64,000 bases of DNA from a virus, in the IMG/VR virus record IMGVR_UViG_3300005683_000016, positions 64,001-128,000 of that record. One strand, given 5' to 3'. Positions 1,613-23,561 of the stretch are shown here, one piece after another (within the stretch, counting starts at the first letter, position 1; each line of letters starts with the position of its first letter). Under the pieces are notes generated by a model, which ran no database searches, was not told the DNA's origin, and worked only from the letters and a program-made list of their open reading frames with translations. The position numbers and the translations under genes were made by a program.

Positions 1613-2351
1613 TCTTCTTTTTAAAGTGATTAAGTAAAGTGTGAACTTCTTTTTTTAGATAGTCTATAGGGTAGTCTTGGGTATTTATTACTTTTCCATT
1701 CTCCATAATAAGATGTTCTATTACCATTTCTCCAGGTTTCATTTCAGGGTTAGATCTAAGTAGCAAATAAAGATAAAGTGAAAGTTGTAAAGAATAATGA
1801 TTAAAGTTACAATCTTCAAGGTGGCTAAGAGGTGGAGACATTTTTTTATATGTCCCGTCCCAAGACTTAAATCCTCGCATAACTATTTTTTCAGAAGTCT
1901 TGTAATCATATATATTAATAGTATTGTTTATTACCTCTATTCTATCGGCTTGCCCTGCTACTTTATAGTAAAGATCAAAGATTAATTTCTCTATATAAAT
2001 AGTATTGTTGTCAAGTTTTAATGATGTCGCACATTTATTATTACAATCATTAGCACTGTCCCATTTGATTAAAAGTTCACAATTATCTTTTGTAATTTTA
2101 CCAAGGGATTTATAGAAATTCTCTTTTTCAAGATGAACAGCAGTGCCTTGAATCTGACTGTTAAGTTTTTTATCAGCCCATTCTTTCAGTAATTCTTCCT
2201 TACTAATACCAATTTTTTTGGCCTTTTTTTCTGCTTCTAAGTCCCAATTTACAATTGGTTTTACTGTGTTTATTAATGAAGTACATGAAGTAAGTATTGT
2301 GTTTGTAGTTGTTTCTCTGTATGTATGGGTATTTTCAATAAATTCAACCAT
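1605..2351 (-). CDS. PD-(D/E)XK exonuclease (RecB/Cas4-like)
   Basis: GTAVH, E, AGQAD, IYDYKT, YSLQLSLY motifs. Confidence 0.85.
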   Translation of the reverse strand: MVEFIENTHTYRETTTNTILTSCTSLINTVKPIVNWDLEAEKKAKKIGISKEELLKEWADKKLNSQIQGTAVHLEKENFYKSLGKITKDNCELLIKWDSANDCNNKCATSLKLDNNTIYIEKLIFDLYYKVAGQADRIEVINNTINIYDYKTSEKIVMRGFKSWDGTYKKMSPPLSHLEDCNFNHYSLQLSLYLYLLLRSNPEMKPGEMVIEHLIMENGKVINTQDYPIDYLKKEVHTLLNHFKKKNG

Positions 2352-2353
2352 TT

Positions 2354-3109
2354 TTAAATATATTTAAAATAATATTTATTTACACGATAACCAAGGTTAA
2401 TTGATTTTTCAATTCCTCTTCTTAATATATTTAAATCTTCTACTGCATATTTTATAGAAAAATAACACATAATAGGAGTTTTATTTAAATCCATACATAA
2501 AATCCTTTTTCCATATAAAAAGGCAGTATTCCAGCGAAAAGGATTTATTTTATCTCCCTTATATTCTTTATACCATCTAAACCCGGCAGATGTTTTTGTT
2601 CTAAGTGAAATACGTTTGTTTAGTATTTTAACTGCGTCTGAATGACTTTCCCACTTTTTTATGAAATCACCTGCTAAACTATATTGATATATAGGAATTT
2701 TTGTGTGAGATTTGTCTCTAAACTTTGTATTTTTTAATTTTTTGTATTTTTCAATATCTATTTTTACTCCCTTCAAACTGTCTCCACCATTTGTTAAATT
2801 TGCAAGAATTCCTGTTTTATTATCTATTCTACCATAAAGTTTAATAAATTCGATTTCCTTTTGTAAAATAAACTCATAATCATTGGACTCTAATATTATT
2901 TCTACTCTGTAGTCATTGTTATTTTTTTTAACAATCTTTTTCCAAAGATCTGATTTATTGTATAAAGAGTGTGCTCTCGTATATTCTGATTTAAAATACG
3001 CATGTTTTATCTTTTTGAAAGATTTTGTACCTACTCCAATATAAAAGGGAGTTCCTTTATCTAATCTAATATGCCGATAAAGGTAATATTTGCCAATGTC
3101 TGTTATCAT
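2354..3109 (-). CDS. Free-standing GIY-YIG homing endonuclease with NUMOD1-like repeats
   Basis: YYLYRH...FYIGVG, E..FI, LANLTNGG; IYQYSLAGDFIKKWES. Confidence 0.8.
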   Translation of the reverse strand: MITDIGKYYLYRHIRLDKGTPFYIGVGTKSFKKIKHAYFKSEYTRAHSLYNKSDLWKKIVKKNNNDYRVEIILESNDYEFILQKEIEFIKLYGRIDNKTGILANLTNGGDSLKGVKIDIEKYKKLKNTKFRDKSHTKIPIYQYSLAGDFIKKWESHSDAVKILNKRISLRTKTSAGFRWYKEYKGDKINPFRWNTAFLYGKRILCMDLNKTPIMCYFSIKYAVEDLNILRRGIEKSINLGYRVNKYYFKYI

Positions 3110-4559: not shown

Positions 4560-5705
4560 TTAGTAATATTGTTTTAGTTGTTCGCCTTGATAAGCGTAAG
4601 TAAAAATATAATCATCTGCTTTTTTAGTTTTTCCTATTACATTACTCCTTACCTTAGACCCTTTAACACCAAACTCTCTTGCAGCACTTTGAGTTGAGAC
4701 ACACGATTTGATATAAAGTTTTGTTACAGCATCATACACAAACGTAGTCTTAGCGGTTTTTGGTAAATTAGAGTTATAAAAACCCACAGTTCCTTCTCCG
4801 CCTTTTGTGAGGTTACTTAATGTACCTAACTTGTTACTCTTTTGTCCATATAAGGCAATGAATTCAATTTCTTTCTTTTTTATAAACGCATAATTATCAG
4901 ATTCCATGATAATTTCTACTTGATATACACCGTTGTTTTTATTGACTATATCATTCCATATTTTGTTTCTCTTTCCTTTTGTAAAGGCTCTTTTATAGTC
5001 ATTTGAGTAACATTCAAGGCTATATGTATAATTAATTTTTTTACCAATTCCTATATAAAATACTTCATTTTTGTCAGGGCGAATATGTCGATATAAATAA
5101 TATTCTCCATTTTCCATTTCATAATTACCTTCAACTTTATGTATTTCCAAGTTAGACAATTTTGGAACATATCTATTCAGAGTCTTTCTTTGTATATTTA
5201 TGTTTTCATCTTGTCCTTCACGGATATAGAAACCAAAACAAGTACCGTTTGTTTTTAAACACTGAGTAACTGAAGAACAGGTACAATTTAAATAAATTCT
5301 ACACTGTTTGACTGACGTAAATGTTTTTTCTTTAATTCCATTTTTATTATAAATACTAATAATTTTTCGTTTTTCTTTCCTTTCATAAGGAAGTATAGAT
5401 ACTCCTTCAAATTTATCTTTCCAAATAAAACCTCCTATACTTTTTTTATTTTTTAAACCGCCTACTTTTATATTAAGTATTTTCTTAACGTCTGACCTTT
5501 TTTCCCAATACTTAATAAACGTTCCGTCTAAACCATACTGATAAACATCTTTGCTCCATACATCTATACAAGTCCATCTTGGATTTTTTGTTTTTAGTCT
5601 TTCTGAGGCTTTTGGATTAGACCTGCCTTTAGAAACACGTCCGTCTTTATTTGGATTATTCAACTTCATCCTTTCTGAAAGTTTCTTTCTCTGTTCGTTT
5701 GTCAT
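4560..5705 (-). CDS. GIY-YIG homing endonuclease with N-terminal NUMOD repeats
   Basis: N-terminal RKKLSERMKLNNP and VYQYGLDGTFIKYW; internal YYLYRHIR...FYIGIG, LSNLTKGGEG. Confidence 0.8.
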   Translation of the reverse strand: MTNEQRKKLSERMKLNNPNKDGRVSKGRSNPKASERLKTKNPRWTCIDVWSKDVYQYGLDGTFIKYWEKRSDVKKILNIKVGGLKNKKSIGGFIWKDKFEGVSILPYERKEKRKIISIYNKNGIKEKTFTSVKQCRIYLNCTCSSVTQCLKTNGTCFGFYIREGQDENINIQRKTLNRYVPKLSNLEIHKVEGNYEMENGEYYLYRHIRPDKNEVFYIGIGKKINYTYSLECYSNDYKRAFTKGKRNKIWNDIVNKNNGVYQVEIIMESDNYAFIKKKEIEFIALYGQKSNKLGTLSNLTKGGEGTVGFYNSNLPKTAKTTFVYDAVTKLYIKSCVSTQSAAREFGVKGSKVRSNVIGKTKKADDYIFTYAYQGEQLKQYY

Positions 5706-8729: not shown

Positions 8730-9941
8730 TTACAAAACGTGTTTAACCGTTTTAAACTTAAGACCTTTGTAATGTTTTTTACCTTCGTAAAGAACCTTTT
8801 CGATTGCTTTTCTTTTGAACTCTGGATGTTTAGATATAAAATCATTGATGGAAGGATATTCAGTTTCGGTATCTCCATTTATTACAATTAGTTTTACTTT
8901 AGGCGCATTTGATGTATTTACCCTAAACTTAACTGACTCTAATTTATCTTCATAAGCAAAAGGATATTGAAGAGTGGGAAGTCCTTTACATAAAATAGTC
9001 CGCAAAGAACTTTCGTTTAAATCGTGCTCTATAAGTAAATGCTTAACCGAAGCATATCTTTTTAAAATATTTTTATCTTGATCTATGTGAAGAACGTTGG
9101 TGGTTTTTTTTCTTATTGTATATAGTTCATTAGGATCATATTCTTTTTCTGGAACAAAGATTAATCCTTTAGTAGATCGCTGTCCTTCTTTACCATATAG
9201 AATTCTTTCTAAAGCATTTACAGATACTTGGGGATAAGTGTCTCTAATCTCTTTAGGAGAAGTAAAGGTTTTAATTATTTCTGAAGAATCAGGTTTGATC
9301 TGGAAAATGTTTCCTAATGAAGTAAAAAGTTGAACTTCAAATTCTTCTTTAGTGACTATTCTATAAGGGTTGAGAAAAAGATATACGTCTTTCACTAAAC
9401 CTGTTTCTTTAGATGTTAAGATTATTTTGAGTTTATTGTTACTCTTTCTATCTAAGAAAATAGAATGAGTGTCTTTGAATTTTAAAGTACGTTCTATAAT
9501 ATTGGTTTTAATAGAATCTTCTATGCCATCGAGTGTTTTTAACTTTGAATAATGTTCAAAGTTTTTCTCAGACATTCTCTTCTGCTTACGTTCTCTTTCT
9601 TGTATATGCCATTCTGCATTAAAAGTACCCTGGATAGCCGATTGAAAATTATACCCCCCACCCACTTTTAAGGACTCATAATAATCCATCCAGTAATCTT
9701 CTCTTTCGTTTAAGAGAGATTTATTATTAGGGTCAATAAGTTCTAATATCCTAAACACAAATGCTTGTTCTCCATACTTATTCCAAGAAGATTGTAAATA
9801 AGTATTACCGTGTATTCCTTTTCTTAGAGAAGATCTATGTTGTGACCACCTCGAAGTAATATTTACACTTTGACCAATGTAACGTTTGTTGTTTTCTAAA
9901 TTAAGAATTTCGTAGATACCTGATTTTGCTTTGTGTGTCAT
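8730..9941 (-). CDS. GIY-YIG homing endonuclease
   Basis: SGIYEI...RYIGQS..ITSRWSQH; likely start MTHK at 9941. Confidence 0.85.
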   Translation of the reverse strand: MTHKAKSGIYEILNLENNKRYIGQSVNITSRWSQHRSSLRKGIHGNTYLQSSWNKYGEQAFVFRILELIDPNNKSLLNEREDYWMDYYESLKVGGGYNFQSAIQGTFNAEWHIQERERKQKRMSEKNFEHYSKLKTLDGIEDSIKTNIIERTLKFKDTHSIFLDRKSNNKLKIILTSKETGLVKDVYLFLNPYRIVTKEEFEVQLFTSLGNIFQIKPDSSEIIKTFTSPKEIRDTYPQVSVNALERILYGKEGQRSTKGLIFVPEKEYDPNELYTIRKKTTNVLHIDQDKNILKRYASVKHLLIEHDLNESSLRTILCKGLPTLQYPFAYEDKLESVKFRVNTSNAPKVKLIVINGDTETEYPSINDFISKHPEFKRKAIEKVLYEGKKHYKGLKFKTVKHVL

Positions 9942-10114
9942 GTTATATGTTTTTGATTGCGGGGGTAAAGGTACAAAAAAATAAGAAGGGTGTATGGATT
10001 TTAACATTTTGTTATGCTTGTAAGATAGCATAAGTTTAGCCTCATCCCCCTCACCCATCCTCAATTTGATCTCCTACGCCCCCTATGGGTTATTTGGAGA
10101 TCATATTTTTTCAC

Positions 10115-10535: not shown

Positions 10536-10560
10536 ATTTACCTATATTATATATAGGTGT

Positions 10561-10613
10561 AACTGTCCAGAGATATGTATCTCTGCTGATGAGTCCTAAA
10601 GGACGAAACAGTT
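10561..10613 (+). ncRNA. Hammerhead ribozyme, type III
   Basis: Stem III AACTG/CAGTT, GUC cleavage triplet (C10567), stem I CAGAGATA/TATCTCTG, CTGATGA, stem II GTCC-TAAA-GGAC, GAAA. Confidence 0.92.
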
Positions 10614-10741
10614 TTATTTACTATTGGACATCATTAAGGTGCTCCGATAGTATTTAGACCAGAAGGATGGTTTATTAATAATCATTTAATGGTCTTAGTT
10701 ACTTAATTAAGTAAATAGTACAATTAATATTGGTATCAAGC

Positions 10742-11155
10742 CTATTTGTTGTAGTATTGTAATATCTTTTGAATATGAGATATAAACTCATCTATTGTGT
10801 GAGTATATTTCATCATGTTACAGGTATTACAAGAAGGTTGCACATTTTCAAGAGTATATCCTTTTTTAGAATCCACTCGATCAAGACAGTTTGCTTTATC
10901 TCCACAATAAACACAAGGAGTATTTAGCAATGTATCTATTTGATCAACTGTTAAGGAGAACTCAATTCCTTTTCTATTTGCTCGTTTAATATAACCTTCT
11001 GCTTTTCTTTCAGCAGGTGTAAGGTCTTTTAAAGGTTTATTACGAGACGAAATAGATTTAGGTTTTTTCTTTTTCTTGATTTCATGTTGTTGTAACTGCT
11101 GTTTTAATTCAGCAAGTTCTAAAGCAAGTTCGTATCCAGTTTTAATCTGTATCAT
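10742..11155 (-). CDS. HNH (His-Me finger) endonuclease
   Basis: CVYCG...LDRVDSKKGYTLENVQPSCNTCNMMK; TACCTTTG -7 element at 11161-11168 supports start at 11155. Confidence 0.8.
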   Translation of the reverse strand: MIQIKTGYELALELAELKQQLQQHEIKKKKKPKSISSRNKPLKDLTPAERKAEGYIKRANRKGIEFSLTVDQIDTLLNTPCVYCGDKANCLDRVDSKKGYTLENVQPSCNTCNMMKYTHTIDEFISHIQKILQYYNK

Positions 11156-11735
11156 AAATACAAAGGTAATGTTTAAACTGGAATTATCCAAATATAATTT
11201 GATCTCCACGCTGGAGGTTGTGTCATATTGAACCCATAAAAACATGGGTTGACCAAATTATATATTTTGAACTGTTCATTAACTCATCATACCATGACAC
11301 TCATTTTGAATCCGTCAGGTTCCCTGTCCACTGCTGGTGGATATGATTGGGACAAAAAGTAATGAGTAAAACCTTTCTAACAGTCAAGGGTGATTTGTGA
11401 GAGACTGTTATTTTAGTTTTCATTTGGTTAATATTATCTATTTGTTTGGTTAACTGTTTGTTAATTTAAACAAGTGATTTAACCAAGTGGTTAACTGTAA
11501 GTCATTGATTGTCAGGGGTAAATAAGAACACAAACCCCAACAAAATAGCAACAAATCCTCTCAAATATTCAAGAGAGGACAACTATAGAAGTAATAAGCA
11601 AATATTCGGTGCCCAATCGGTGCATCAAGAGATGGTACTCTCCAGTAAAACTCTACGCTGTTCTCAGACTCACCACCTGAAGCAATGCAGATATGGAAGA
11701 ATTAACAATTTTTTCATTTGTAAAATCAAAAAATT

Positions 11736-12173: not shown

Positions 12174-12587
12174 ATGCTTTACCTATTCAACACTACAATC
12201 ATGCCTAATGAAGGCGTGTTTGTAAATCGCAAAGTATCCAAAGAACAAGCCTGGGAGATTATTGCAAACGCACCAGCGTTTACATCTGCGTTGGGCCATC
12301 AAGGCTCAGCAGATGTATTTAATGCTGTGTTTCCAACATTTGAAGTATCTGTAAATCGCATCCAAGCACAAATGCAACCCAAAGATGAGGCAGTATGTCT
12401 CAAAGTGTTGGGTCGTCTTCCAGAAGGACAAATCCTTTCTCTTGAACAATTGCAAGAGATTGGTTTCGAATTTTTCCATGTCCAAATGGTCATGGGAATT
12501 ACAGAAAACCCAATCGCATTTACTTGCGAGATGGGAGGGTCAAAAAACGAAAAAACATTCACCGCGTTTGGTGAGTGTAAATTTTAA
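12174..12587 (+). CDS. acrIII-1: DUF1874/YddF family viral ring nuclease (anti-type III CRISPR)
   Basis: MLYLFN, SALGHQGSA (GH motif), VNRIQ, RLPEGQILSLEQL. Confidence 0.85.
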   Translation: MLYLFNTTIMPNEGVFVNRKVSKEQAWEIIANAPAFTSALGHQGSADVFNAVFPTFEVSVNRIQAQMQPKDEAVCLKVLGRLPEGQILSLEQLQEIGFEFFHVQMVMGITENPIAFTCEMGGSKNEKTFTAFGECKF

Positions 12588-12966: not shown

Positions 12967-13599
12967 ATGAAAAATAAAAAAATCCTGTCTATTGATGCCG
13001 AAACCGATGGACTTTGGGGCAATCCGTTTGTAGTTGCCGCTATCGTATATGAGTGGCAACCAGAAAAATTCATCCCAGGTATGGATCGTGGTGTAGATGG
13101 GTACAGACCTGAACACATCCTTCAAGGATATTGGAAAGAAACCAACAAAATTCTGTTAAAACTACCTGATACAGTGGTTTCTAACCAATGGGTAATCGAG
13201 AACGTATTACCTACATTGAGCAATATCCGCCAACACTCTGGCGGTGCTGGTAGTGAATATGTGAACCATACTCACGAATCTTATGAAGACATGCTGCGTG
13301 ATTTTGCAGCATTTTATCTTGCTCACAAACAAAATGCAGATTGCATCTGCCACATGGGCTACATTGTAGAGGCCCATTTGTTTCGGGAAATGCACCACCT
13401 TGGTCACATAGGAGAATGGGATGCACCATACCCGTTGCTTGATGTGTCAGGCAATCTCCAGCAAGTTGGAGAAGATCCTACAAGTGTAGATAATTATGCT
13501 AAAAAACATCGGTTACCAATCACGGATTATGGTTCAACCCATAATCCCCTGTACGACTGCGAAGTTGCCGCCAAAGTGTATATGCACTTAACACGGTAA
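12967..13599 (+). CDS. DEDDh 3'-5' exonuclease (DnaQ-like)
   Basis: ILSIDAETDG (Exo I), HNPLYD (Exo III). Confidence 0.8.
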   Translation: MKNKKILSIDAETDGLWGNPFVVAAIVYEWQPEKFIPGMDRGVDGYRPEHILQGYWKETNKILLKLPDTVVSNQWVIENVLPTLSNIRQHSGGAGSEYVNHTHESYEDMLRDFAAFYLAHKQNADCICHMGYIVEAHLFREMHHLGHIGEWDAPYPLLDVSGNLQQVGEDPTSVDNYAKKHRLPITDYGSTHNPLYDCEVAAKVYMHLTR

Positions 13600-13604
13600 A
13601 CAAT

Positions 13605-14150
13605 CAAAATCAAAAGTGAAGTGAAATATATCCATAATGTAATAGACGGTAAGCAGTCCGTTGAGCATATTTGGTTAATCGTGAATGTACTATGTACAAT
13701 GCGAGTATTAAGACCTTTAACGGGTTGCAAGGAGATAATATAATTATCAAATTGTAGGACGGCTTTTGATTTTTTTTAATAAGATTACGGTGAGAATCCG
13801 TCTCTCAGCAAAGTAGTAATACTTGAACTAATAGAGAGTGTAATAAGATGTTCAGTAGCGAAGAAATTAATTTTTCTTAGCGAGAATGGAGAAATCCTCT
13901 GAAGTTATTACAGATAACCATGTGGGGCTTATGTCTTGAAATTCTTAAAAAGTGGCGCACTTTTTATTAATAAGTTATAATTCTGTATTAGTACAGCGTA
14001 ACTTAGATTATCAAGCATTAGTGCAGACTTAAAAATCATGGAGTGGTACGACCTCAACTCGTATAATCTTTGTTGCAGATATTGATGAAAACATGAAAAG
14101 ATGTTCTGAGAGTCTTTTAAAAAGGTATCAAAAAGCAAAAGAAATTTTAT
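13605..14150 (+). ncRNA. Large structured RNA (unit 1; possibly ROOL-like)
   Basis: No credible ORF; stems 13609-17/13762-70, 13839-46/13905-12, T-loop-like ACGG-TGAGAAT-CCGT, GGA-GAAA-TCC. Confidence 0.55.
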
Positions 14151-14160
14151 TAAAAATATA

Positions 14161-14595
14161 AAACATTCACTCCGTAAAGTCTCAGTCTTTAACAGGACTC
14201 ATCACAATTCCTTTAACGTAACATAAGTTGGTGGAACAACAGGCTTAGGTCTGTCTCACAAGTATGGTGGAAGTTTGGTTGGTAAAGACAGGAGATAATG
14301 TAATCCGAAAGGATTGGCAGCAGATGGACATTGTGTTCTTAGAACATAAATAGGTCAATACAAGATGAACAGATTAAATGCTGTTATGCTTGGACGTTTC
14401 CTTATCTGCCTTTTCAAGGTAACACTTTCAAACCAGTAATGGTGAGATAATGAAGAGTATACATGTGGCAAAAGTGTTCCAGTAAGAGCATACCCACCTG
14501 ACAGGGTAATTCCAGTTTCCAAATTGTATAAGGAAACAAACGGGTTAGGATATAATTGTGCAGACGCCCTAATAGTTAGGCTAAGGGTGTAACAA
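14161..14595 (+). ncRNA. Unassigned structured RNA, copy A (~435 nt)
   Basis: Shares five core blocks and compensatory pairs with 15238-15678. Confidence 0.75.
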
Positions 14596-15231
14596 CTCCC
14601 AATCATTGGGTTAAATGGTAGTTATCAGTTACTTTAACTGATTTAGTTTACCTGTTTGTATAAATTTAACAGGAGTTCTTGTACATACAAGTGTTGTTAC
14701 TTTTTCCAGCAGTCAGAAAAAAGCGTGTAATCTACGAGATAAGATTAACCTACTGTACTTAGGTTTGAGGGTAGTTCCATGTACAACATTGAACCGAAAG
14801 GTATCATGTAAGCCCTTAAGTGGGATAAATTGAGTTAAATTGTGTTAGGTTGAAAATATACCTGTAAGAAATAATACATTTTTCGCATTTGTGAGATTTG
14901 TTAAGGTTCTTCCACAATAATATCCTACACTCAACGATGGCAGCCGGGTTGGAACCCACAGTAGATAAATAACTATACTCTTTTAGGGAGTGAAGTCAGT
15001 GTAGTTTTACTGAAAAAGTTAGTATTTATTAGACTGTTTAATAGGCGTTTTGTATATTGTAAAGTTGAATTTGTATCATAGAGAATCTGTGGGTGGATTT
15101 GCCTAATGTTAGGTGAGAGTAAGTTCGATCCTTACCGTTGATATAAATTTAACAGATATACAATCCTATACTATATAAGTCTGATCAACTTATGTAGTAA
15201 TTGTGCGACCCACATTATTGTGGGTGACATT
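14596..15231 (+). ncRNA. Unassigned large structured RNA (unit C) with embedded tRNA-like domain
   Basis: Many stems; T arm GTAAG-TTCGATC-CTTAC stacked on TCAACG/CGTTGA; shared 3' motif. Confidence 0.55.
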
Positions 15232-15237
15232 TTTTAA

Positions 15238-15678
15238 AAACATCCACTCTGTAAAGTCTTGTAATTCGCGGAAGGTTTAACCAAATATTCTCTCTTTGGG
15301 GATAAAAAAGGTGAGAATCCTTTTTCTGTGTATAGACAGGAGATGATGTAAACCAATAATATGGTTTGGCAGCAGATGGACATTGTTATTTCTTAAATGA
15401 ACTAATAAATAGGTTACTGTTCAACTTATATAAGTTGAAAGAGATTTCCTTATCTGCCTCTTCACGTTAATAGCGTTCAAGATACACTATGACCGTTGTG
15501 AAATTCAACAGGAACTACTGATTCTATACCAATCAGAGTAGTGTACATCCAGTAATGGTGAGATAATGAAGAGTATACTAAGGGTAGTCCGTAATTCAGA
15601 AATGAATTAGAGTGGGAAAATAGACTTATAAAAATCCTACCTTAGTAATTGTGCGGCATCCCAAGTGGATGCAACATT
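15238..15678 (+). ncRNA. Unassigned structured RNA, copy B (~440 nt)
   Basis: Paralogue of copy A. Confidence 0.75.
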
Positions 15679-15689
15679 TATTAACAAAA

Positions 15690-15723
15690 TTTTAACTTTT
15701 AACTTTTAACTTTTAACTTTTAA
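15690..15723. repeat. Tandem repeat (TTTTAAC) x ~4.9
   Basis: Seen directly. Confidence 0.95.
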
Positions 15724-15736
15724 AATTGTAACGGAC

Positions 15737-16114
15737 ATGCAATTTACATTAGATCACAAAGTAGGAACAAACTATGTAACTGTCACTTTAAGTGGAAAAG
15801 TATCTCCACTTATATGGTGTGAGTTTTTCACAAAACTCCAATATCTTGGAGGAAAACAAGCAGTAGAAGGACAGTCGGATATTTGGCTGTTACCTACTTT
15901 TGTTACATCACAAGTCATTGAAGAAATCATCCATAACACATGTTTCGTGTGTGGTGGATTGATGAAAGATTCTACTGCATTTTTGAATGACTGTGTATCA
16001 TTCGATGATTTTGGTAATGATGCTGGACAACGAGGTACAACACAATCACGTGTTGGAGAAGCAAAACAAGTCAAAGTTCGCAAGTGCTCTTCTTGCGGAC
16101 ACTCACACACTTAA
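15737..16114 (+). CDS. Zinc-ribbon protein
   Basis: CFVCGG...CSSCGH. Confidence 0.65.
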   Translation: MQFTLDHKVGTNYVTVTLSGKVSPLIWCEFFTKLQYLGGKQAVEGQSDIWLLPTFVTSQVIEEIIHNTCFVCGGLMKDSTAFLNDCVSFDDFGNDAGQRGTTQSRVGEAKQVKVRKCSSCGHSHT

Positions 16115-16482: not shown

Positions 16483-16866
16483 ATGAATCAACCAATCATT
16501 TTCAACAAAAATAACCCAACAGAAAAATACATTATTACCGAAAAATGGGAGTTTAACCCCAACGGTATAACCGTCTTTGATATGGAAGTTGGAGGAATCA
16601 CAGATAACGGATTTTACCATTTTTCAGAAATCGAAAATTGGAAAAATTTAGTTAAGCAGGATTTAAAACCTAAAGTCGTAGAAGCAATTCAATCACAAAA
16701 CCTTGAAAAGGTATTATCGTTGCTTCATTTTATGTCAGATAACGGTGTATTATATCAAGGAAGATATAACGCTCTAAAGAAACAGTATACTATGGGCATG
16801 ATTGAATCCTCAGAATATACAAGAGGAATTGCTCAAATAGGTTACGACATTTTGAAAAAATTTTAA
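16483..16866 (+). CDS. Protein with C-terminal EAD11-like (effector-associated) domain
   Basis: VVEAIQSQNLEKVLSLL...LYQGRYNALKKQYTMGMIESSEY...AQIGYDIL. Confidence 0.6.
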   Translation: MNQPIIFNKNNPTEKYIITEKWEFNPNGITVFDMEVGGITDNGFYHFSEIENWKNLVKQDLKPKVVEAIQSQNLEKVLSLLHFMSDNGVLYQGRYNALKKQYTMGMIESSEYTRGIAQIGYDILKKF

Positions 16867-17386: not shown

Positions 17387-17472
17387 GCTCCTGTGGCGAA
17401 ATTGGCAGCACGCTGCGGTCTTAAACACCGTTGGAGAAATCCGTAAGGGTTCAAGTCCCTTCAGGAGCACCA
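17387..17472 (+). tRNA. tRNA-Leu (TAA)
   Basis: GCTCCTG/CAGGAGC acceptor, anticodon loop CTTAAAC, long variable arm, TTCAAGT T loop, encoded CCA. Confidence 0.9.
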
Positions 17473-17606
17473 AACATTATTTTATGAACATTTACAACCG
17501 CATCAGAAAACGTACATCTTGGAAAACCAAATTAAAAGTTTGGGTCAAGATGCGTATTTTATTAATTTATAATTACTTTAAACAATGAGAACTTAGAACT
17601 TATAAA

Positions 17607-22475: not shown

Positions 22476-22619
22476 TAAATTTAGAATTTATTAAAAATTG
22501 TCATACTTTTGTTCTGCTTTTGTAATATCAGTAACACAAAATAATAATTATATAGCCACACTCAAGGTATTACCAGGCTGGTATTACAAAAGCACTTGAG
22601 ATGTGGCTTTTTATTTATT

Positions 22620-23561
22620 ATGAAGATTAAAAGTTGGACAGTAGAACAGTTAAAGTTATTAAAAAATCATTATGCGGACTCTAATATAAGTATAAAGGAG
22701 TTAAGCAAACTCATTGGTAGATCAGAACAGGCTATTATCCAAAAGGCTTGTAAATTAAAAATTCATAGATTTAGTCAAATTAAGGATAGTAGTATAGAAT
22801 TTTTAAAAAATAATTATCATAATTTACAAATACCTCATAAAATCTTTGAAGCAGAGATTGGAAGGAGTTGGCCCACCATATTACTGCTTGCAAAAAGTTT
22901 AGGATTAAAGCGGACTATTTCTTATACACCCAACTCTAATTATTTTAATAGTATTGACTGTTGGGAAAAATCTTACATAATAGGATTATTTTGGGCTGAT
23001 GCGCATAATAGTATTATAGAAAATAGAATTTCAATAGGATTACAGGAGCAAGATAAGCATATTCTCGAATCAATCAATAATATCATACAAAAAGATACAC
23101 CTTTAATGTTTAAACCTGGTAGAATAGCGAAAGGTTATAGACAAAAAAGTAAAAATCAATATGTTCTTAGAATAAGAGACAAAACAATTTCTCAGAAACT
23201 GTTAGAATATGGAATGACTTCGAATAAAACTAAAACTTTAAAATTTCCAACTTGTATCCCTGATCAATTTCTTTCTGCTTTTATCTTAGGTTATTTTGAT
23301 GGAGATGGGTGTATTTATTTAGGTAAGAAATGTAGTAATAAAGTATCTATTTGTGGGACTCTAAGTATGTTAACGGAAATAAAGAGGATATTAATTGAAA
23401 ACTGTAATGTATCTGATGTTAAAATCAGACAAGTAGGAAATATATACGACATTGCTTGGAGTAAAAAAGAAGATTTAAAAAATATTAGAAGTTTTTTATA
23501 CTCAAATGCTACTTTATATTTACAACGAAAATATAATAAATTTCATTCTATAGAAAATTAA
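22620..23561 (+). CDS. LAGLIDADG homing endonuclease (two-motif)
   Basis: SYIIGLFWADAH and FILGYFDGDGC; own TACTTTTG element at 22504-22511. Confidence 0.85.
   Translation: MKIKSWTVEQLKLLKNHYADSNISIKELSKLIGRSEQAIIQKACKLKIHRFSQIKDSSIEFLKNNYHNLQIPHKIFEAEIGRSWPTILLLAKSLGLKRTISYTPNSNYFNSIDCWEKSYIIGLFWADAHNSIIENRISIGLQEQDKHILESINNIIQKDTPLMFKPGRIAKGYRQKSKNQYVLRIRDKTISQKLLEYGMTSNKTKTLKFPTCIPDQFLSAFILGYFDGDGCIYLGKKCSNKVSICGTLSMLTEIKRILIENCNVSDVKIRQVGNIYDIAWSKKEDLKNIRSFLYSNATLYLQRKYNKFHSIEN

Follow-up and report, generated by a model that had tools for sequence, protein, structure and literature searches.

We analysed a 64-kb window of viral DNA (bases 64001-128000 of the 142,038-bp IMG/VR virus record IMGVR_UViG_3300005683_000016) and find that an island at 13600-15730 of this window carries, on its + strand, RNA genes that are conserved and covary, a known ribozyme among them. 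The island contains five or six RNA elements, namely a hatchet self-cleaving ribozyme, two copies of an RNA that we call B-type, one C-type RNA, one E-type RNA and a candidate 5' element, A0 (Table 1). No family in Rfam matches the B-, C- or E-type RNA in covariance-model searches, and these three RNA types are new to Rfam. The explanation that we favour, with moderate confidence, is that the island is a group of phage-encoded structured non-coding RNA genes whose products are made early, released and active in trans, in the manner of the phage RNAs GOLLD and ROOL.

Gene density in the window is high, and from about 10 kb on nearly all genes lie on the + strand. Neither translation table 11 nor table 4 nor the reading of TAG as Q gives a + strand open reading frame (ORF) of at least 60 aa between the stop codon at 13599 and the ATG at 15737, and the minus strand of the island holds three short ORFs only (67-83 aa). 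When ORFs of at least 60 aa on either strand are counted, the island is the sole internal gap of more than 400 nt in the 64 kb, which confirms the lack of a credible ORF reported in an initial annotation of the window. The motifs quoted there are all present as well [GGTGAGAATCC at 13790 and 15309, TTCGATC at 15124, CTGATCA at 15181, and GAAA and GTAA tetraloops]. It is the + strand that bears the G-U pairs, the hatchet, a hammerhead ribozyme, the tRNA and all flanking genes, and the heptamer GGTGAGA occurs five times in the 2.1-kb island against nine times on the + strand of the whole 142 kb. A permissive Rfam search of 13400-15900 (E up to 10) returned nothing credible besides the hatchet, the group I and group II intron models match neither this interval nor the minimal B-type member (L058 110-375), and neither ARAGORN nor the Rfam tRNA model calls a tRNA within 13600-15730. 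Single-sequence folding gave z-scores of -1.0, -2.7 and -0.9 for the units and is uninformative by itself. We found no description of these RNAs in the literature searched, which took in a catalogue of some 10,000 candidate RNAs from viruses (its unnamed motifs lie outside the comparison).

The initial annotation had divided the island into four large RNAs of comparable kind. The proposed borders (about 14150, 14585 and 15220) lie within about 15 nt of those derived from homologues (14158, 14597 and 15231/15235), but the content of the units differs, since there are five or six elements, belonging to three new types plus the hatchet. What had been taken as unit 1 is really a succession of the A0 candidate (13600-13785), a conserved hairpin module, the hatchet and an A/T-rich spacer, unit 3 splits into the E-type and C-type RNAs, and units 2 and 4 are paralogues, being the two B-type copies. 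Most elements have no Rfam model, but part of unit 1 is fully covered by the hatchet model (RF02678), the one element that an Rfam-wide search explains. The view of the island as a set of structured RNA genes is borne out by homologues from independent metagenomes, among which helices are retained through compensatory changes.

Copies, anatomy and covariation of the B-type RNA

Homologues were found by exact-word scans with an invariant sequence block; a covariance model, R1, covers the 3' half of the B-type RNA only. Within the window, a repeat analysis shows that 14160-14600 and 15237-15680 have six collinear blocks in common, one of them 30 nt identical, and further homologues lie on two IMG/VR contigs plus seven other metagenome contigs from different projects. 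There are thus ten distinct copies, two in the window and the others in loci designated L054, L056, L057, L058, L061, L065, L068/L005 and L073, and R1 recovers all ten with 90-190 bits. They range in length from 241 nt in the minimal member (L058 122-362, minus strand) to 639 nt. No match to the island was obtained by blastn, near or distant, against 50,697 phage records, and a synteny search based on the exonuclease yielded four related phages, none of which has these RNAs or any Rfam match. A scan for a block-2/block-3 motif pattern returned 43 loci, in which the only real ones were the relatives already known. Because R1 found no copy in 151 Saprospiraceae genomes, the B-type RNA looks phage-specific among the genomes searched.

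From its 5' end the B-type RNA begins with a lead AACAUUY, the 5' strand CUCC of helix P1, GUAAA, and helix P2 (GUCU/AGAC) bearing a variable domain d2. Then come A, the P1 3' strand GGAG, AU, AAURU, hairpin d3, GGCA and a helix d4 with a large variable insert, followed by CUCUUC, hairpin d5 (ACUC-GAAA-GAGU), UUCAA(UAU), an optional insert and an invariant 27-mer running from CCA-GUAA-UGG to GAAGAGUA. The 3' portion consists of domain dX, (A)AUUGUGC-RR, hairpin dY and a tail A-AYAUU. The junction strands are identical and the 27-nt block is invariant in 10/10 copies, while the proposed pairs are all nested. The predicted fold has about ten helices around the invariant junction strands, with a 5' P1/P2 hairpin domain and then a multi-helix junction that appears to be closed by pairing of the 5' AAURU with the 3' tail AYAUU.

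Covariation among the copies agrees with this fold. In the R1 alignment 98.4% of cells are paired, and 13 cells in five pairs carry double changes, a level that 0/500 shuffles reach; sliding the partner by 1-3 columns as a control leaves 32-50% paired. The closing stems of d2, d3, d4, dX and dY vary between members while staying complementary. At the centre of the long-range helix, five copies have an A-U pair and the other five a G-C pair, with none unpaired, across distances of 200-600 nt, and the match survives shuffling of the intervening domains across the A-U and G-C groups. Domains have been exchanged among members, in that the d2 of copy 1 is that of L068 and its dX that of L065, and the d3 of L061 equals the d2 of L057.

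Several other readings of the B-type sequence were tried and rejected. Pairing of AAURU with the 5' lead AACAUU fits at the key base in only 5-6 of 10 copies, whereas the 3' tail fits in all 10. A hatchet-like 3' module, prompted by the shared GUGCAGAC, was dropped because its AGAC belongs to the covarying terminal hairpin, and a P3-like pairing does not fit. A centre resembling group II domain 5 or U6 fails in that the AGC-helix-bulge geometry is not conserved, d4 being GCCC/GGGC in L068 and lacking a bulge in L056 and L065. Peptides starting from the AUG inside the invariant block have downstream frames that are not conserved.

The hatchet ribozyme and the A0, C-type and E-type RNAs

By its covariance-model score, the hatchet of the window is a bona fide member of its family. 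The conserved C(-1) is aligned at 13896 (AUC/C at 13894-13897), and scission would be predicted between C13896 and C13897, leaving the upstream RNA with a 2',3'-cyclic phosphate. Hatchets have C at position -1 and, in about 90% of cases, a P0 hairpin just upstream (PMC4604424). The ribozyme of the window shares with the class the P0 hairpin, the order of P1-P4, the C at -1, the conserved UGUGGGGC and GUGCAGAC strands and a phage-like setting beside other self-cleaving ribozymes. It differs in a two-hairpin insert of about 70 nt in P4, in standing first in a series of large RNAs, and in that the consensus P1 loop caps a hairpin some 100 nt further upstream, which forms a module of its own, conserved in the window, L054 and L057. 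In those two relatives the hairpin and the stem that follows it are also kept upstream of the hatchet core; the stem covaries (CCCU/AGGG in L054 and L057, UCUC/GAGA in the window), and the loop UGAGAAU is the consensus P1 loop of the hatchet, seen as such in L065. The hatchets of the relatives score 70 bits (L065), 42 bits (L057) and 32 bits (L054).

The initial annotation envisaged a co-transcribed operon processed into units. Since the hatchet belongs to a real self-cleaving class, at least one processing event is encoded on the + strand transcript, and this part of the proposal stands. An obligate operon does not, as elements in relatives are often separated by ORFs; small + strand ORFs are interspersed among the RNAs of L054, which indicates independent modules. 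At the 5' end of the island, A0 includes AGGAGATAATATAAT, which resembles the B-type junction (family D10), and could be a degenerate or lineage-specific RNA. The A/T-rich spacer that follows the hatchet possibly holds a promoter.

The C-type RNA has five homologues, and 20 of its 41 predicted pairs are retained through double (compensatory) changes. Its parts are a 5' hairpin (ACAUU..GAAA..AUGU), GGCAGC plus a hairpin, a cloverleaf-like subdomain with a T-arm-like GUAAG-UUCGAUC-CUUAC, a hairpin X with the palindromic loop UGAUCA (15182-15187), and then AUUGUGC, a hairpin and ACAUU. Both GGCAGC with its hairpin and the 3' module AUUGUGC-hairpin-ACAUU are common to the C- and B-type RNAs, and R1 gives the C-type a weak score (17-19 bits), from which the two may be distant relatives. 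The loop of hairpin X always holds a self-complementary 4-6-mer of varying sequence (UGAUCA, GAUC, UGUACA, GUAC or GGCC), as do 26-37% of random loops of that size, which hints modestly at self-association between loops. A pattern scan for additional C-type RNAs gave three chance matches in coding DNA. The E-type RNA has 48 predicted pairs, six of them with compensatory changes.

In L054, L068 and L073, the B-type RNA carries between UUCAA and CCA an insert of 159-168 nt that is a nested tRNA-like domain, in which the 7-bp acceptor stem covaries, the D-arm contains GG and the T-arm reads UUCGA(G/A)U; copy 2 of the window has a D-armless version of 68 nt at 15481-15548. ARAGORN calls the inserts as tRNA only if introns of 58-78 nt are allowed, with anticodons that disagree and with a discriminator and CCA that coincide with the start of the invariant block, and it calls no transfer-messenger RNA in the inserts of the relatives. 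Like tRNAs and intron-bearing tRNAs, the inserts have an acceptor stem, D-arm, T-arm, discriminator and CCA, and the C-type RNA has its cloverleaf-like subdomain. Unlike tRNAs, the inserts are uncalled by ARAGORN defaults or Rfam, have the anticodon arm replaced by 58-78 nt and are internal to a larger RNA.

Table 1. Features of the island, its surroundings and the matching CRISPR locus (window coordinates unless a locus is named)
Feature	Position	Strand	Remarks
Type III hammerhead ribozyme	10560-10614	+	49.7 bits, cut-off 48.5; 3.3 kb upstream of hatchet
STIV_B116-like/AcrIII-1 ring-nuclease homologue	12174-12587	+	upstream neighbour
RNase H/exonuclease-like gene, 210 aa	stop 13599	+	5' neighbour of island
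Candidate element A0	13600-13785	+	12-bp closing stem 13606-13617/13762-13773; fold z-score -2.1
Hairpin module	13786-13857	+	hairpin ACGG-UGAGAAU-CCGU (13787-13801), then stem CUCUC/GAGAG (13802-13806/13834-13838)
Hatchet P0 hairpin	13858-13881	+	AAGAAA (13861-13866) pairs with UUUCUU (13873-13878)
Hatchet self-cleaving ribozyme	13894-14041	+	RF02678; 67 bits, gathering cut-off 51; E 6e-13; model 1-133
A/T-rich spacer, hatchet to B-type copy 1	14042-14157	+	no conserved structure, no homologue
B-type RNA, copy 1	14158-14597	+	R1 166 bits
Copy 1, P1 CUCC	14170-14173	+
Copy 1, GUAAA	14174-14178	+
Copy 1, junction CAGGAGAUAAUGU	14289-14301	+
Copy 1, GGCA	14316-14319	+
Copy 1, CUUUUC	14410-14415	+
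Protospacer, copy 1	14432-14461	+	29/30; flanks 5' A, 3' CAT
Copy 1, invariant 27-nt block	14433-14459	+
Copy 1, UUGUGC	14556-14561	+
Copy 1, terminal hairpin plus tail	14562-14597	+
E-type RNA	14597-14787	+	five hairpins closed by AACUCCC/GGGUAGUU; homologues in L054, L057
C-type RNA	14786-15231	+	homologues in L054, L056, L057, L058, L068
B-type RNA, copy 2	15235-15679	+	R1 96 bits; invariant block 15549-15575
Protospacer, copy 2	15548-15577	+	same spacer, 28/30
Island end	15686-15736	+	five TTTTAAC repeats, then conserved AAAATTGTAACGGA-ATG start context of next gene
EAD11 protein gene	16483-16866	+	downstream neighbour
tRNA-Leu(UAA)	17387-17472	+	1.7 kb downstream; CCA encoded
Type VI-B CRISPR-Cas13b locus	L076 3674-4765 and 4928-7999

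A Cas13b spacer, the likely host and possible functions of the RNAs

One scan of 185,579 species genomes with an invariant 25-mer of the B-type RNA gave a single match, on a contig (L076) of an uncultured Saprospiraceae metagenome-assembled genome. The matching site is the reverse complement of the invariant block and forms spacer 2 of a CRISPR (clustered regularly interspaced short palindromic repeats) array with 16-17 repeats of 36 nt and 15 spacers of 29-31 nt, of which spacer 2 is the only one to match this phage family. An intact cas13b lies beside the array (NF038190, 573 bits; 590 bits over a 1132-aa frame), and Cas13b next to 36-nt repeats and spacers of about 30 nt makes this a type VI-B locus. 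It stands in a chromosomal context, beside a PKD/type IX secretion system protein, and a VapB-like/PIN (VapC-like) pair borders the opposite end of the array. The spacer match names a Saprospiraceae bacterium as the likely host of the phage.

Cas13b cuts RNA, so that the polarity of the spacer matters. On the L076 + strand, spacer 2 is antisense to the phage + strand. The choice of this strand as the CRISPR RNA strand is suggested by TTTG-N19-TATTTTTG upstream of the array, which we take to be a promoter of the Bacteroidota type, and is also favoured by the co-orientation of the array and cas13b. The repeat has a central U-run followed by GAAAGG (UUUGAAAGG), as in known Cas13b repeats including that of PspCas13b, which follows the spacer in the guide (10.1101/2023.03.10.532141). 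We consider it quite probable that the spacer is read as antisense to the phage + strand, and with this reading of the array a + strand transcript of the B-type RNA is implied.

If our preferred explanation is correct, the RNAs would be made early in infection, with or beside the flanking + strand genes, and released from the early transcript through the hatchet cut and hairpin or U-rich ends; terminator-like hairpins with U-rich tracts are found at the ends of units C and D. They would then act in trans as compact folded particles, like GOLLD and ROOL, possibly self-associating via palindromic loops, and their role is possibly tied to phage tRNAs or translation takeover. GOLLD and ROOL are encoded near tRNA islands, and a tRNA sometimes lies in the GOLLD linker (10.1101/2024.12.08.627333); they form RNA-only assemblies. 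The island RNAs resemble GOLLD (RF01998) and ROOL (RF03087) in being phage-encoded and hundreds of nt long, with many helices, GNRA loops and conserved plus variable parts, in having tRNA genes adjacent to them and in being able to carry a tRNA or tRNA-like domain in a linker. They differ in being smaller (241 nt in the minimal form), in their core, in their likely Saprospiraceae (Bacteroidota) host and in that several types stand in tandem with a hatchet, and homo-oligomeric assembly is suggested only by the covarying palindromic loops of the C-type RNA.

A number of observations weigh against this explanation. Even at E up to 10, the GOLLD and ROOL models match neither 13400-15900 nor the minimal member (L058 110-375), which excludes membership and leaves an analogy of context only. 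P1, P2, P6 (CUCUUC/GAAGAG) and P8 (CCA/UGG) are invariant or show one-sided changes, so that the pairing there is compatible and unproven, and the outer long-range pairs fail in four of the ten copies, copy 1 included. The B-type family is small, with about ten loci and apparently one phage lineage, and relatedness within it inflates the covariation statistics. No homologue of A0 exists in any fetched locus. As for the spacer, the orientation of the array is unsettled, with degenerate repeats at its promoter-proximal end, the identity of its repeat to that of PspCas13b is only 21/36 against 17/36 in the other orientation, and a single spacer has the right polarity half the time by chance.

Junction strands that stay invariant while helices drift are typical of ribozyme cores, and the B-type RNA, perhaps also the C-type, might itself be catalytic, for example cutting itself at or next to the invariant CCA to give a tRNA-like 3' end whose cyclic phosphate is resolved by a cREC-type enzyme. 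The acceptor stem, discriminator and CCA of the insert abut the invariant block exactly, the B-type RNA of L005 is immediately preceded by a cREC_REC ORF (PF20274, 86 bits; cyclic-phosphate processing; 4668-4985, minus strand), and the family is accompanied by hatchet, hammerhead and twister-like ribozymes. We nevertheless regard a catalytic B-type RNA as unlikely, since the 241-nt minimal member bears no likeness to any ribozyme model at E up to 10, most B-type members are without the tRNA-like insert, no cREC was found in the window's own genome, and the putative cut site is spanned by the Cas13b protospacer. The RNAs could also be decoys or sponges against RNA- or tRNA-directed immunity (anticodon nucleases, Cas13 collateral cleavage or type III signalling), forming one anti-defence cluster with AcrIII-1, and the decoy role mentioned in the initial annotation would suit a host lineage that uses Cas13b and has acquired a spacer against the B-type RNA. 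The adjoining STIV_B116/AcrIII-1 homologue and EAD11 protein and the tRNA-like arms of the C-type and some B-type members are consistent with such a role. Yet no mimic of the 36-nt Cas13b repeat turned up in the whole 142-kb genome when up to 12 mismatches were allowed, the tRNA-like parts are optional, the RNAs of the relatives are not adjacent to AcrIII-1, and invariant multi-helix cores exceed what a decoy needs, which makes this a low-probability explanation in our judgement.

We consider it improbable that the units spread among phages as selfish mobile RNAs, of an intron-like or homing-associated kind, and have no role for the phage. Unit positions and the bordering small ORFs do differ between phages, peripheral domains are swapped among members, AACAUU stands on both sides of the units, and the region is rich in homing-endonuclease genes, with a NUMOD1 ORF overlapping the C-type start in L054. 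The ORFs flanking the island are complete, however, and taking out a unit rejoins no split gene; group I and II models do not match, no endonuclease gene lies inside any unit, and the strict conservation of the cores argues for selection on the RNA itself. The terminator-like hairpins already described, together with a DUF805b cis-regulatory motif in related loci, would suit conserved hairpins that are mere cis-acting leaders, terminators or stabilisers of the flanking mRNAs, but multi-junction folds of 240-640 nt with invariant single strands, next to unrelated genes in different phages and in two full tandem copies in the window, make this very improbable.

A more specific and rather doubtful proposal is that the B-type RNA represents a new ribozyme class or an RNA that handles tRNA ends. 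Its core holds a CCA in cis (CCA-GUAA-UGG), and it might process, protect or present tRNA-like 3' ends, with the C-type RNA as a self-dimerising partner and cREC-type enzymes resolving the cyclic phosphates. If true, the proposal would provide a definite biological role for the self-cleaving ribozymes that cluster in phages. Self-cleaving ribozymes (hammerhead and hepatitis delta virus-like 'theta') flank phage tRNAs. The island resembles these arrangements in having small ribozymes in arrays of non-coding RNA, where they would define RNA ends, and differs in that the hatchet, whose cleavage is predicted, neighbours large unclassified RNAs instead of tRNAs.

Large intricate RNAs without an assigned function are rare, being mainly GOLLD, ROOL, OLE and raiA, and every one of them has opened up unexpected biology, with RNA-only cages as the latest case. 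The locus described here adds three unclassified RNA classes, with a 241-nt minimal form small enough for direct structural and biochemical work. The new RNAs are physically linked to a hatchet, and why phage ribozymes cluster has been a question since 2015; a testable answer would be that large RNAs in an array require defined ends. The natural occurrence of a Cas13b spacer directed at a non-coding RNA of a phage suggests that RNA-guided immunity can usefully target abundant structured RNAs, and the spacer supplies a host group, the Saprospiraceae, for testing.

Genomic surroundings of the RNAs

The neighbours are as the initial annotation described them, with AcrIII-1 and exonuclease genes on one side of the island and EAD11 and tRNA genes on the other, in an anti-defence/early context. 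At the downstream end AAAATTGTAACGGAC-ATG follows the tandem TTTTAAC repeats, and the same start context, a candidate for a conserved promoter or a signal for translation start, precedes the first post-island gene in L005 and L073. The tRNA-Leu(UAA) gene (17387-17490 region) directly precedes AACATTATTTT and then GAACATTTAC, with AACAUU there as at the ends of the B-, C- and E-type units and before B-type units. 'Hairpin + AACATT' was rejected as a general terminator of the phage, with 5/82 sites genome-wide, equal to control hexamers. The hammerhead occupies the gap between a DUF4494-like gene and an endonuclease VII/HNH-like gene. Around the island, genes of homing-endonuclease type (NUMOD, GIY-YIG, endonuclease VII/HNH and LAGLIDADG) lie at 2354-3109, 4560-5705, 8730-10064, 10742-11245 and 22596-23561, pointing to a highly mosaic region.

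As in the window, tRNA genes are found just downstream of the RNAs in L059/L068, L061 and L057. The RNA-rich early regions of L054 and L057 contain DUF805b motifs (RF02914), and L054 has in addition a sub-threshold twister-P1-like match (46 bits against 67) [L054 1583-1654 and 3010-3046; L057 4667-4703, minus strand]. The cREC_REC ORF of L005 has no ATG, GTG or TTG start near its N-terminus and runs with its last six codons into the 5' end of the B-type RNA. Downstream of the B-type RNA of L061 and right after a tRNA-Met, ARAGORN reports at 2014-2088 (+ strand) a tRNA with a four-base anticodon (caaa), which could be a frameshift-suppressor-type tRNA or a miscall.

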